Shown here: positions 27,006 through 31,561 of the stretch, piece by piece
Layout of the letters: each line of letters opens with the position of its first letter
Numbering within the stretch: position 1 is the stretch's first letter
IMG/VR virus record: IMGVR_UViG_2534681698_000021
DNA length: 31,561 nucleotides
Source of the DNA: a virus
Taxonomy: Duplodnaviria; Heunggongvirae; Uroviricota; Caudoviricetes
Reading direction: 5' to 3' (one strand)
Made by a program: the position numbers and the translations under genes
The notes under the pieces: generated by a model
Seen by the model: the letters and a program-made list of their open reading frames with translations, nothing else
Database searches by the model: none
What the model was told of the DNA's origin: nothing

Positions 27006-28715
27006 ATGAAATTTATTGGGAAGCTGCTTCTCTACATTCTCATCGCTCTGTTAGTGGCGATCGCTGGCCTCTATTTTCTTCTGCAAACCCGCTGGGGAGC
27101 AGAACATATCAGCGCATGGGTTTCCGAGAATAGCGACTATCATCTGGCCTTCGGGGCGATGGATCACCGTTTTTCCGCGCCATCTCATATCGTGCTGGAG
27201 AACGTCACGTTTGGTCGTGATGGCCAGCCCGCGACCCTGGTGGCCAAAAGTGTCGACATTGCGCTAAGCAGTCGGCAACTGACCGAACCACGCCATGTCG
27301 ATACCATCCTGCTGGAAAACGGGACGCTGAATCTCACCGACCAGACCGCGCCGCTACCGTTCAAAGCCGATCGTCTGCAACTGCGTGATATGGCGTTTAA
27401 TAGCCCGAATAGCGAATGGAAACTGAGCGCGCAGCGGGTAAATGGCGGCGTAGTTCCGTGGTCACCAAAAGCCGGTAAAGTGCTGGGTACGAAGGCGCAG
27501 ATTCAGTTTAGTGCCGGATCGCTTTCGCTCAATGATGTTCCTGCCACCAATGTACTGATTGAAGGCAGTATTGATAACGATCGCGTTACGCTGACTAACC
27601 TGGGTGCCGACATCGCCCGCGGGACATTAACCGGAAACGCGCAGCGTAACGCCGACGGCAGCTGGCAAGTGGAAAACCTGCGCATGGCGGATATACGTCT
27701 ACAAAGCGAAAAATCGCTAACCGACTTCTTTGCGCCATTACGCTCTGTCCCGTCGTTGCAGATTGGTCGCCTGGAAGTGATCGATGCTCGTTTGCAAGGT
27801 CCGGACTGGGCGGTGACCGACCTCGATCTCAGCTTGCGCAACATGACCTTCAGTAAAGATGACTGGCAGACACAGGAAGGCAAACTGTCGATGAACGCTA
27901 GCGAGTTCATTTATGGTTCGCTGCATTTATTTGACCCGATTATAAACACGGAATTTTCCCCGCAGGGCGTAGCGCTGCGCCAGTTCACCAGCCGCTGGGA
28001 AGGGAGTATGGTCAGAACGTCAGGGAACTGGCTGCGTGACGGGAAAACGTTGATCCTTGATGATGCGGCAATTGCCGGGCTGGAATATACCTTGCCGAAA
28101 AACTGGCAACAGTTGTGGATGGAAACGACACCCGGTTGGTTAAACAGCCTGCAACTGAAGAGATTTAGCGCCAGCCGCAATCTGATCATTGATATCGACC
28201 CTGACTTCCCGTGGCAGCTCACCGCGCTCGATGGTTACGGTGCCAACCTGACGCTGGTTACCGATCATAAATGGGGCGTCTGGAGTGGCTCGGCGAATCT
28301 GAATGCCGCCGCCGCGACATTCAATCGTGTTGATGTTCGTCGCCCGTCGCTGGCGCTGATCGCCAACAGCAGCACGGTGAATATCAGCGAACTGAGTGCA
28401 TTTACTGAAAAAGGCATTCTGGAAGCCACCGCCAGTGTTTCACAAACGCCACAACGTCAGACACATATCAGCCTGAATGGACGCGGTGTGCCGGTGAATA
28501 TTTTGCAACAGTGGGGATGGCCTAAATTACCGTTGACTGGCGACGGCAATATTCAGCTTACCGCCAGTGGCGATATTCAGGCCAATGTCCCGTTGAAACC
28601 TACGGTTAGCGGGCAATTGCATGCCGTGAACGCCGCAAAGCAGCAAGTGACTCAAACCATGAATGCTGGCATCGTTTCCAGCGGTGAAGTTACATCGACG
28701 GAGCCGGTGCGGTAA
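27006..28715 (+). CDS. yicH: AsmA-family protein
   Basis: ORF 26982-28715; recognised N-terminus MKFIGKLLLYILIALLVAIAGLYFLL (N-terminal membrane anchor) at ATG 27006 (569 aa). Confidence 0.88.
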   Translation: MKFIGKLLLYILIALLVAIAGLYFLLQTRWGAEHISAWVSENSDYHLAFGAMDHRFSAPSHIVLENVTFGRDGQPATLVAKSVDIALSSRQLTEPRHVDTILLENGTLNLTDQTAPLPFKADRLQLRDMAFNSPNSEWKLSAQRVNGGVVPWSPKAGKVLGTKAQIQFSAGSLSLNDVPATNVLIEGSIDNDRVTLTNLGADIARGTLTGNAQRNADGSWQVENLRMADIRLQSEKSLTDFFAPLRSVPSLQIGRLEVIDARLQGPDWAVTDLDLSLRNMTFSKDDWQTQEGKLSMNASEFIYGSLHLFDPIINTEFSPQGVALRQFTSRWEGSMVRTSGNWLRDGKTLILDDAAIAGLEYTLPKNWQQLWMETTPGWLNSLQLKRFSASRNLIIDIDPDFPWQLTALDGYGANLTLVTDHKWGVWSGSANLNAAAATFNRVDVRRPSLALIANSSTVNISELSAFTEKGILEATASVSQTPQRQTHISLNGRGVPVNILQQWGWPKLPLTGDGNIQLTASGDIQANVPLKPTVSGQLHAVNAAKQQVTQTMNAGIVSSGEVTSTEPVR

Positions 28716-28767: not shown

Positions 28768-30147
28768 TTACAACGTAATTGTCAGCGCATTCCCTTGAGG
28801 CTTCACCACCAGCCCCTGCTCACTTTCAGCCTGCGAACCGTCTTGCAGACCATTTACTTTCACAACATTGCGCAGGCACAGTGTCCAGTTCTTCGCCTCG
28901 CCCGCACCAGTCACAGTAATCGTGTTGCCAGTACGTGCTGCTTTTAAAGTAAAGATCACCGATCCGTCAGCAGCGGGCACTTCACAGACGGCTTCATGCC
29001 CGTCTTGCAGATTAAAGAGGTGGAATGCCGTGCCTTCGTGCCACACGTAATCGGGACGTTGATCGTTGTTGCCCAGCGCCAGTAGAGTGTTATCACGCAC
29101 ATAAACGGGCAGACTCAGGAAGCCGTGCTGCTGTTTATGCCAGCGACTACCGTCGAGTTCATCGTTGTGCCACAGGTGTGTCCAGCGACCTTCCGGCAGG
29201 TAGAACTGCACATCGCCCGCTTCAGTGAACACCGGCGCAACCATCACGTTGTCGCCTAACATGTATTGACGGTCAAGGTAATCACAAGCCGGATCGTCCG
29301 GGAACTCCATCATCATGGCCCGCATCATCGGCGTACCCCGCGCGTTCGCACGCGCAGCTTCACGATACAGATACGGCATCATGCGGCATTTCAGTTGCGT
29401 GAAGAAGCGCACCACATCACAGGACTCATCATCGTAGGCCCACGGCACACGATAAGATTTGCTACCGTGCAAACGGCTATGGCTGGAGAGCAAACCAAAC
29501 GCGCACCAGCGTTTGTAAACGTGCGCCGGAGCGGTATTTTCAAAGCCGCCGATATCGTGGCTCCAGAAGCCAAAACCTGAAAGGCCAATAGACAAACCAC
29601 CGCGCAGGCTTTCCGCCATTGATTCGTAGTTAGCGTAACAATCGCCACCCCAGTGTACCGGGAATTTCTGCGCACCGACGGAGGCCGAGCGGGCAAACAA
29701 GACAGCTTCTTCCTCACCAACGGTGTCCTTGAGCACGTTCCACACCAGTTCGTTGTAGATGTACGCATAATGGTTATGCATTTTCTGCGGATCGGAACCG
29801 TCAAACCACTGAACATCAGTTGGGATACGTTCGCCAAAGTCGGTCTTAAAGCAATCAACGCCCATCGCGACCAGACCTTTCAGTTTGTCGGCGTACCATT
29901 TGCAGGCATCCGGATTGGTAAAGTCATAAATCGCCAGACCTGGCTGCCATTTATCCCACTGCCATAGCGAACCGTCCGGGCGTTTGAGTAAATAGCCTTT
30001 CTCTTGTAACTCTTTAAAGACGGGGGATTTTTGACCGATATAGGGGTTAATCCAGACGCAGATTTTCAGCCCTTTCGCTTTCAGGCGGCGGATCATCCCT
30101 TCCGGGTCAGGGAAAGTCAGCGGGTCCCACTCAAAATCGCACCACTG
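28768..30147 (-). pseudogene. yicI: Alpha-xylosidase YicI (GH31), 3' portion only; gene interrupted by IS150
   Basis: Minus-strand frame is open from the stop at 28768 to 30147 and encodes ...QWCDFEWDPLTFPDPEGMIRRLKAKGLKICVWINPYIG..., which matches internal YicI sequence. The reading frame is broken at 30147/30148, where the IS150 terminal sequence begins. The ORF-track start at 30096 is an internal Met. Confidence 0.85.
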
Positions 30148-30194
30148 TGTACTGCACCCATTTTGTTGGACGATGAAATGGAATAGCCCCTAAT

Positions 30195-30716
30195 ATGTCA
30201 AAGCCAAAATACCCTTTTGAAAAGCGCCTTGAAGTCGTGAATCACTACTTCACAACTGATGATGGTTACAGGATCATCTCGGCACGTTTTGGTGTCCCCC
30301 GAACCCAGGTCAGGACATGGGTTGCCCTCTATGAAAAACATGGAGAAAAAGGTTTAATTCCCAAACCTAAAGGCGTTAGTGCTGATCCAGAGTTGCGTAT
30401 TAAGGTCGTGAAAGCTGTGATCGAGCAGCACATGTCCCTTAATCAGGCTGCTGCTCACTTTATGCTTGCTGGTAGTGGTTCTGTAGCCAGGTGGCTGAAG
30501 GTCTATGAAGAGCGCGGAGAAGCTGGTTTACGCGCGCTCAAGATTGGCACCAAAAGAAACATTGCAATATCAGTTGATCCAGAAAAAGCGGCATCAGCAT
30601 TGGAGCTGTCAAAAGACCGACGCATTGAGGATCTTGAAAGGCAAGTTCGATTTCTTGAAACGCGGCTTATGTATCTAAAAAAGCTGAAAGCCTTAGCTCA
30701 TCCCACGAAAAAGTGA
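30195..30716 (+). CDS. insJ: IS150 OrfA (InsJ), helix-turn-helix DNA-binding protein
   Basis: 173-aa ORF MSKPKYPFEKRLEVVNHYFTTDDGYRIISARFGVPRTQVRTW..., recognised as IS150 InsJ. Confidence 0.92.
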   Translation: MSKPKYPFEKRLEVVNHYFTTDDGYRIISARFGVPRTQVRTWVALYEKHGEKGLIPKPKGVSADPELRIKVVKAVIEQHMSLNQAAAHFMLAGSGSVARWLKVYEERGEAGLRALKIGTKRNIAISVDPEKAASALELSKDRRIEDLERQVRFLETRLMYLKKLKALAHPTKK

Positions 30717-30736
30717 AAGTACTCAACGAGCTAAGG
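30677..30736 (+). promoter_or_regulatory. Programmed -1 ribosomal frameshift signal of IS150 (slippery heptamer A AAA AAG plus stem-loop)
   Basis: AAAAAAG at 30677-30683 in the insJ frame (CTA AAA AAG), a 6-nt spacer, then a perfect 10-bp inverted repeat GCCTTAGCTC (30690-30699) / GAGCTAAGGC (30727-30736). The insK frame is -1 relative to insJ. Confidence 0.8.
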
Positions 30737-31561
30737 CAGTTTTATCCTCTTGATGAGCTTCTCAGGGCTGCGGAGATACCGCGCAGTACGTTTTATTATC
30801 ATCTAAAGGCTCTCAGCAAGCCTGACAAGTATGCGGACGTTAAAAAGCGTATTAGTGAGATTTATCACGAGAATAGAGGCCGATACGGATACCGTAGGGT
30901 AACGCTGTCTCTTCATCGAGAAGGGAAACAGATTAACCATAAAGCTGTTCAGCGCCTGATGGGAACCCTCTCACTTAAAGCAGCGATTAAGGTCAAGCGA
31001 TACCGCTCTTACAGAGGAGAGGTAGGGCAAACCGCCCCTAATGTTCTCCAAAGAGATTTCAAGGCTACGCGGCCAAACGAGAAGTGGGTTACCGATGTTA
31101 CTGAATTTGCAGTCAATGGGCGCAAGCTGTATTTGTCTCCAGTAATAGATCTCTTCAACAACGAAGTTATTTCTTACAGCCTTTCGGAAAGACCAGTGAT
31201 GAACATGGTTGAGAATATGCTCGATCAGGCATTCAAAAAGCTTAATCCTCACGAGCATCCTGTTCTGCACTCTGACCAGGGATGGCAGTATCGTATGAGA
31301 AGATATCAAAATATCCTTAAAGAACATGGTATTAAACAAAGCATGTCCAGAAAAGGCAATTGTCTGGATAATGCTGTGGTGGAGTGTTTCTTTGGAACCT
31401 TAAAGTCGGAGTGTTTTTATCTTGATGAGTTCAGTAATATAAGCGAACTGAAGGATGCTGTTACGGAATATATTGAATACTACAACAGCAGAAGAATTAG
31501 CCTGAAATTAAAAGGTCTGACTCCAATTGAATATCGGAATCAGACCTATATGCCTCGTGTT
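30713..31561 (+). CDS. insK: IS150 OrfB (InsK), DDE transposase catalytic domain; 3' end beyond the window
   Basis: Frame -1 relative to insJ, open from 30689 to the window end; translation from GTG 30713 gives [34 protein letters not shown]...[14 protein letters not shown]. Missing from the ORF track because it is open at the window edge. Confidence 0.88.

Follow-up and report, generated by a model that had tools for sequence, protein, structure and literature searches.

An IS150 copy in yicI of an O25:H42 ST1201 ETEC lineage, with a right flank resembling frlC

What has become of yicI at the end of this DNA, where the frame of an alpha-xylosidase gene gives way to an insertion sequence, and how did the two junctions of that element arise? 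The window, by which we mean the whole stretch of 31,561 nucleotides that was analysed, holds on its minus strand exactly codons 314-772 of yicI and the stop codon, with the TAA at 28768-28770 (TTA on the plus strand) and 459 sense codons at 28771-30147. This fragment does not differ from the final 1380 nt of the intact 2319-nt yicI of strain HKUOPY1. The GH31 TIM-barrel profile of Pfam (PF01055) is matched only from profile position 50, and the GH31 C-terminal domain (PF21365) is matched as well. Asp at 416 and Asp at 482, which we take to be the catalytic nucleophile and acid/base of YicI, were checked for and are both present in the C-terminal piece. The longest internal open reading frame of the fragment starts with an ATG at 30096 and encodes 442 aa. 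The translation aligns with YicI chains of known crystal structure (1WE5, 2F2H and 1XSI) over residues 314-772; unlike in those proteins, the N-terminal 313 residues are cut off here by the insertion sequence, which breaks the 772-codon frame at codon 313 and leaves a pseudogene. The PGAP annotation of the closely related strain 510016 labels the 3' fragment 'incomplete; missing N-terminus' and treats both halves of yicI as pseudogene fragments. A previous reading of this DNA, made from the sequence only, had placed the break at 30147/30148 with 459 of the 772 codons on this side, and both its coordinates and its codon counts proved exact.

The interrupting element is IS150, as the sequence-only reading had it, a member of the IS150 group of the IS3 family, which moves by a copy-out/paste-in route. 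The yicI frame gives way to TGTACTGCACCCATTTTGTTGG at 30148, the position where the left inverted repeat of IS150 (TGTACTGCACCC...) begins. From there to 31561 the window is identical at 1414 of 1414 positions to the annotated IS150 of K-12 MG1655 (3720633-3722075). The last sense codon of orfB is also the end of the window, which leaves out the final 29 nt of the element; the TAA stop of orfB is formed by the next three bases, as seen in 510016. The full-length 1443-bp copies at this site in 510016 and in strain 503046 are identical (1443/1443) to the MG1655 element. The terminal inverted repeats, starting with TG and ending with CA, are imperfect, the left repeat agreeing with the reverse-complemented right repeat at 18 of the first 24 positions; the right repeat lies outside the window and is present in 510016 and 503046. 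The orfB frame, at -1 relative to orfA, opens at 30713 and overlaps the end of orfA at 30716, with a slippery site at 30677-30683, and the joined orfA-orfB coding sequence carries the PGAP tag 'programmed frameshift'. The K-12 element (insJ/insK) thus shares with this one the same sequence over 1414 bases, the inverted repeat, orfA, the A AAA AAG heptamer and orfB with its DDE domain. The present copy, oriented against yicJ-yicI transcription, differs in lying in yicI rather than at the hokA/sokA locus and in a right flank apparently borrowed from a third locus. The features are collected in Table 1.

Table 1. Coordinates of yicI, its neighbour and the IS150 element in the window
Feature	Position	Strand	Basis
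yicH (AsmA family), convergent neighbour	27006..28715	+	annotation of the colinear 510016 record
yicI 3' fragment (GH31 alpha-xylosidase)	28768..30147	-	intact-allele identity, PDB, Pfam, PGAP
CTG, presumed target-site duplication (3 bp), left copy	30145..30147		intact allele, CACCACTG followed by GAAGGCTTTC
IS150, first 1414 of 1443 bp, cut by the window end	30148..31561	+	identity to K-12 MG1655
left terminal inverted repeat TGTACTGCACCCATTTTGTTGGAC	30148..30171	+	left repeat against reverse-complemented right repeat
orfA (insJ), 173 aa, helix-turn-helix DNA-binding	30195..30716	+	ORF list; Pfam HTH_28 4e-23, HTH_29, HTH_23
A AAA AAG slippery heptamer, -1 programmed frameshift from orfA to orfB	30677..30683	+	read in the orfA frame
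orfB (insK), 283 codons, DDE/integrase catalytic domain	30713..31561	+	Pfam rve 3e-29, rve_2, rve_3, HTH_21

Since the window ends 29 nt before the tip of the element, we infer its right junction from relatives. A 601-bp probe across the left junction, searched in 5,426 complete RefSeq E. coli genomes, was found at 100% identity in a single one, that of ETEC strain 510016 (NZ_CP025851.1). A lookup of the 442-aa reading frame recovered the same left junction in strain 503046 (CP025886.1) and in the drafts AQET01000054.1 and JAAPJH010000018.1. Full identity in NZ_CP025851.1, together with these further independent assemblies, means that the left junction is not a chance resemblance. The window and 510016 differ at 14 of the 31561 positions, seven of the differences being private to each, and over the 5634 bases compared with AQET01000054.1 the window shows no difference, sharing even 25761A, which is otherwise private to it. 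In both 510016 and 503046, another 29 bp beyond the window complete IS150, and yicI nt 1-937, yicJ and selC come next, as in K-12. One copy of the element is therefore flanked by yicI nt 1-937 and 940-2319, which are contiguous in the uninterrupted gene apart from nt 938-939; only these two bases (TC) are missing, and five foreign nucleotides are present. The remaining IS end and the 5' part of yicI, predicted to lie beyond the window, thus occur in the sister genomes 510016 and 503046 and in several drafts, and this arrangement identifies a simple insertion, with yicI divided at codon 313.

The lineage of 510016 and 503046 has been described as undesignated phylogroup A, O25:H42, ST1201 and STh-positive, with CS6, CS4 and CS21, its isolates having been collected in India in 2009-2012 (PMC6446980). 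The split allele is found in several draft assemblies of this same O25:H42 ST1201 phylogroup A lineage. IS150 had also been connected with B-lineage strains. It occurs in 2862 of the 5426 complete E. coli genomes (53%), at a median of 2 and a maximum of 14 places per genome, and so is no marker of that lineage; the family that carries the allele is the ST1201 O25:H42 phylogroup A ETEC, and the 601-bp probe detected no yicI::IS150 junction in B strains among the 5426 complete genomes. In 510016 the element occupies 8 places, and one other copy is identical to that in yicI. These 8 copies, together with an IS150-mediated inversion considered below, make past activity of IS150 in the lineage plausible.

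What does the insertion do to yicI and its neighbours? In 510016, HKUOPY1 and K-12, yicJ and yicI both lie on the minus strand with yicJ at the higher coordinates and 9 nt between it and the start of yicI, so that transcription runs from yicJ to yicI. Polarity on a downstream yicJ had been proposed, with the order of the two genes reversed: yicI is the distal gene, and yicH, next downstream, runs towards it, so that no co-directional gene follows the insertion and polarity on yicJ falls away. Being upstream, yicJ should stay intact, and 510016 and HKUOPY1 share one accession for its protein. The break falls within the catalytic barrel of the enzyme. The first 312 residues are now followed by an 11-residue tail that the junction and the element encode (STCTDPKKLDS), and the C-terminal piece has neither a natural start nor a promoter-like site, from which we infer loss of YicI function: the split gene would probably yield no functional alpha-xylosidase. 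No sigma-70-like site was found on the minus strand between IS150 and the yicI 3' fragment, and an outward promoter driving the 3' part was rejected on this ground. The PGAP pseudogene annotation agrees with a loss of YicI.

The right junction is unusual. In the intact gene, ...CGCACCACTG is followed directly by GA AGGCTTTCATCC. A canonical insertion would be expected to leave ...CACCACTG to the left of IS150 and CTGGA AGGCTTTC to its right; what is observed is ...CACCACTG, IS150 and TGTCG AGGCTTTCATCC. The 3-bp target-site duplication anticipated by the sequence-only reading is accordingly half there, as CTG on the left; its right copy is absent in the sister genomes, where TGTCG stands in place of CTGGA. 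In five or more assemblies the right flank reads TGTCG, and the duplication of 3 bp (sometimes 4 bp) that a canonical insertion leaves on both sides of the element is incomplete. The short-read drafts APXK01000233.1, PNSK01000110.1 and JAAPJH010000131.1 have the IS tip followed by TGTCGAGGCTTTCATCC, the same as the two PacBio genomes, and a 323-aa product encoded across the junction occurs on 9 contigs. Past position 31561 the genome of the window would be expected to continue with ...TAACTGTCCAACTTTTTGGGGTCAGTACA and then TGTCGAGGCTTTCATCC; CTGGAAGGC at that place would denote the unconverted allele. The lacking duplication concerns the history of this copy, not the identity of the element.

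Where do the five bases come from? A 52-nt probe made of 40 nt of the IS tip and 12 nt of flank matched, at 100% identity, a second place in 510016: an IS150 that lies between hokA, to the left, and the 5' part of frlC, to the right. The right flank of this hokA/frlC copy reads TGTCGAGGCTTTCGCG / TGTCGAGGCTTTCGCGACG, and native frlC reads GATCATGTCGAGGCTTTCGCG. The 3' part of frlC lies 0.22 Mb away, adjoining another IS150 that has the K-12 sokA/glyS sequence to its right, and this other half of frlC ends in ...ATGT beside its IS150. With the frlC halves 0.22 Mb apart and each beside an IS150, the lineage must once have carried an IS150 in frlC with the duplication TGT and then undergone an inversion of about 0.22 Mb by way of the hokA copy. 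The five foreign bases at yicI (TGTCG) equal the frlC duplication TGT plus the next two bases of frlC, and the eight bases that follow, AGGCTTTC, occur in native yicI and native frlC alike.

The likeness of yicI and frlC just outside the element is accounted for by the register in which IS150 inserts. On the side of the right end, IS150 sites follow the motif duplication (3-4 bp) + Y + GRGGC, with which ten sites with verified duplications agree (Table 2). Among 19 de-duplicated IS150-type right flanks, some of which are orthologous sites and hence represent fewer independent ones, 17 have RGGC starting at +5 to +7. The same holds for 6 of 95 unrelated elements recovered by a genome-collection scan with the right-end 22-mer; this control set shares the 22-nt tip and consists mostly of unrelated insertion sequences of Streptococcus and other genera. 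Native yicI lies in this register, as CTG-G-AAGGCTTTC, and its CTG + G + AAGGC matches the other IS150 sites, which argues that the yicI target was captured by the transposase in what would be the usual way. The motif is often continued by TTTC. It may already be known, as one paper states, giving no details, that IS150 has an insertion preference (PMC10379815); a mutation-accumulation study with only 2 IS150 insertions gave no motif.

Table 2. IS150 insertion sites, read outward from the right end
Site	Duplication	Next base	Following motif
L014	CGCT	T	GAGGCTTTC
L016	CTG	T	GAGGCATTTTC
L113	ACC	T	GAGGCA
L143	AAG	T	GAGGCT
L145	AAG	T	GAGGCC
L141	GAA	T	GAGGCT
L144	CCC	T	GGGGCT
L149	CCGG	T	GAGGCG
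frlC	TGT	C	GAGGCTTTC
L146 (weaker)	AAA	T	GGCGC
L148 (no motif)	CGT	C	ATCTC

We propose the following history for the allele. In an ancestor of the O25:H42 ST1201 CS6 ETEC lineage, an intact, reference-identical IS150 inserted at codon 313 of yicI, and all sampled carriers have inherited the resulting yicI::IS150 allele. The first step would be a canonical insertion with duplication of CTG, and the second a later repair or gene conversion templated by the frlC copy of IS150. Such a conversion would begin inside the element, pass out of it at the right tip and terminate within the shared AGGCTTTC, turning CTGGA into TGTCG. Cutting by the transposase at the right tip could have left a break there, and its repair by synthesis-dependent strand annealing would give this outcome. 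We give the overall account, an inherited IS150 insertion into yicI for which a later frlC-templated conversion is the most likely second step, a probability of about 0.8. Against the conversion, a run of five mismatches with no more than 8 matching bases behind it makes a short landing pad for homologous repair.

The strongest competitor is a single aberrant insertion, in which the yicI copy would have been made directly from the frlC copy and no duplication was ever formed. The left end would have been joined canonically, and synthesis or processing at the right end would have run 5-13 nt past the tip and been sealed at AGGCTTTC. This yields exactly the CTG, IS150, TGTCG and AGGCTTTC that are observed, and the two routes predict the same final sequence. 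IS150 insertions that lack a duplication are indeed known from the long-term evolution experiment, though only with adjacent deletions; every IS150 insertion there that had no associated deletion duplicated its target, and for this reason we favour two steps (PMC11708052). A slighter point against the single step is that IS nt 1074 and 1183 are not the same in the yicI copy and in the copy now beside the frlC right flank, a weak argument because the latter copy is an inversion hybrid. Weighed together, two steps are the most likely course and the single event is unlikely, roughly 55:20, with the remainder given to neither. We know of no IS3-family pathway that brings donor flank into a target.

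A separate proposal, that the loss of yicI was selected in a gut pathogen lineage rather than neutral, draws on independent lesions of the gene in other E. coli, namely delT972, delC981, W315* and W320*. These lie within 50 nt of one another and were sampled solely because each yields the same 442-aa reading frame. Recurrent loss fits relaxed selection equally well, and mutational bias would suffice for a site that matches the IS150 target motif, so that we consider selection quite improbable. Still less credit can be given to the idea that IS150 marks a rearrangement breakpoint and that the halves of yicI are not neighbours in the genome from which the window comes. An absent duplication is a classic sign of recombination between IS copies, and the same lineage has the inversion of about 0.22 Mb between the IS150 copies at hokA and frlC, but in 510016 and 503046 the element is flanked by yicI 940-2319 and 1-937 in the same orientation, followed by yicJ and selC. 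An assembly or polishing artefact at the right junction, through a chimeric repeat join or mis-polished bases, was worth considering while the first two sightings were both PacBio genomes from one study and one pipeline. With the left junction in four assemblies, and the TGTCG right junction in at least three further drafts besides the two complete genomes, it is barely conceivable; assembly error was rejected on the repetition of TGTCG in independent drafts.

Several other sources of the five bases were rejected. Point mutation of the right duplication would have to change five bases in a row. If the 3-nt spacer of an IS circle had been carried over, this would account for TGT at most, not TGTCG, and would predict an extra duplication. 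Two nearby insertions with a deletion are rejected since the five bases do not belong to yicI. Correction of a quasi-palindrome, with the GCCTCG inside the element towards the end of orfB as template, would leave ACA-CGAGGC where TGT-CGAGGC stands; the GCCTCG complementarity shows no co-variation in related elements.

How does the allele compare with known cases? As a gene disruption yicI::IS150 is ordinary, already annotated in RefSeq and not of a new kind. That a very common insertion sequence has made a pseudogene of a dispensable sugar-hydrolase gene is routine and in itself matters little; our literature search returned no paper pairing yicI with IS150. IS150 disruptions in the E. coli B long-term evolution experiment involve the same element, simple insertion into non-essential genes and typically a 3-bp duplication (PMC11708052). 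The present case differs in belonging to a natural ETEC lineage, in having been inherited by several isolates of 2009-2012 and in the replacement of the right copy of the duplication. With IS copies that lost their duplications through IS recombination it shares the involvement of another copy, and the same genome does carry an IS150 x IS150 inversion. In contrast to that type of loss, the flanks have not been wholly exchanged: 5 nt by the tip are replaced, and yicI resumes after the shared 8-mer. The 5-nt flank replacement is thus a small variant of duplication loss by interaction between IS copies, and the borrowed bases offer a clean natural example that an absent duplication need not mean a rearrangement. 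Tentatively, and with considerable doubt, we suggest that copying from IS150 to IS150 can overrun the tip, resolve in the target motif and overwrite one copy of the duplication with the other flank. If true and general, this would be an unrecognised route of duplication loss without rearrangement.

On the same reading, target choice by IS150 would be more sequence-specific and more asymmetric than is usually stated. The motif could be of help in finding likely insertion hot spots, as in E. coli B strains that are being engineered or evolved. Found in one of 5426 complete genomes, yicI::IS150 is useful as a clonal marker of one Indian CS6 ETEC lineage.

Insertions of IS150-type elements share an asymmetric motif on the right-end (orfB) side, in which the target-site duplication of 3-4 bp is followed by T/C and then by G(A/G)GGC, with T-rich sequence often coming after it. 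The motif is based on IS150 right flanks from the retrieved loci L013-L016, L020-L135 and L141-L150, together with native yicI (window 30139-30147; L003 5449-5460). Its pentamer is the reverse complement of a GCCTC located near the orfB end, about 35 nt inside the IS150 tip; the complementarity to this interior GCCTC does not extend further and shows no co-variation in relatives. A genome-contig scan (L017-L136) gave exact matches to CCAACTTTTTGGGGTCAGTACA, the 22-nt tip at the right end of IS150, within IS elements from Streptococcus, Fusobacterium, Alistipes, Oribacterium, Anaerosphaera and other genera. The interior sequence beside the tip is unrelated to IS150 in these elements, and their flanks are T-rich, not GAGGC.

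The ETEC strain 510016, which carries the same yicI::IS150 junction, contains an inversion of about 0.22 Mb bounded by two IS150 copies, one at the hokA/sokA site known from K-12 and the other inserted in frlC. Two hybrid copies result, one flanked by hokA on its left and the 5' part of frlC on its right, the other by the 3' part of frlC on its left and sokA-glyS on its right. Because frlC (fructoselysine 3-epimerase) holds an IS150 and its halves are parted by the inversion with the hokA/sokA copy, this gene is likewise disrupted. The frlC left flank in 510016 (L138 3643-3651) reads GATCAATGT, compared with GATCATGT in native frlC, a single additional A adjoining the duplication that could be genuine or a homopolymer error.

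Coordinates of the hybrid IS150 copies and of the window-private differences
Feature	Positions	Location
IS150 hybrid copies	L013 4598-6040, L138 3652-5094	NZ_CP025851.1, about 2.082 and 2.304 Mb
Window-private differences	9783, 10021, 14578, 18584, 20570, 22246, 25761	

K-12's own IS150 is without a duplication, with GTA on its left and AAC on its right (L139 1614-1633, 3077-3106). Other strains (L143, L145) have an oppositely oriented IS150 with a clean AAG duplication in the hok/sok region where the K-12 copy lies. IS150 seems to target hok loci repeatedly.

At seven single bases the window differs from both 510016 and HKUOPY1, a strain with intact yicI; among these private changes are xanP W90R (25761) and dut K77N (10021). 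The 25761A allele is common to the window and the draft assembly AQET01000054.1. Private to 510016 are also seven differences, every one a G:C to A:T transition.

Independent yicI lesions occur in other E. coli lineages, as 1-nt deletions (T972, C981) and nonsense changes (W315*, W320*; L005-L008, L010). They all came to light only through the same 442-aa ORF downstream of the lesion, and they suggest that loss of yicI is common. Outside the window, just beyond yicJ, both 510016 and HKUOPY1 have a gene for a tyrosine recombinase after tRNA-Sec (selC) (L002 34217-34311 onward), indicating an island integrated at selC in these strains.
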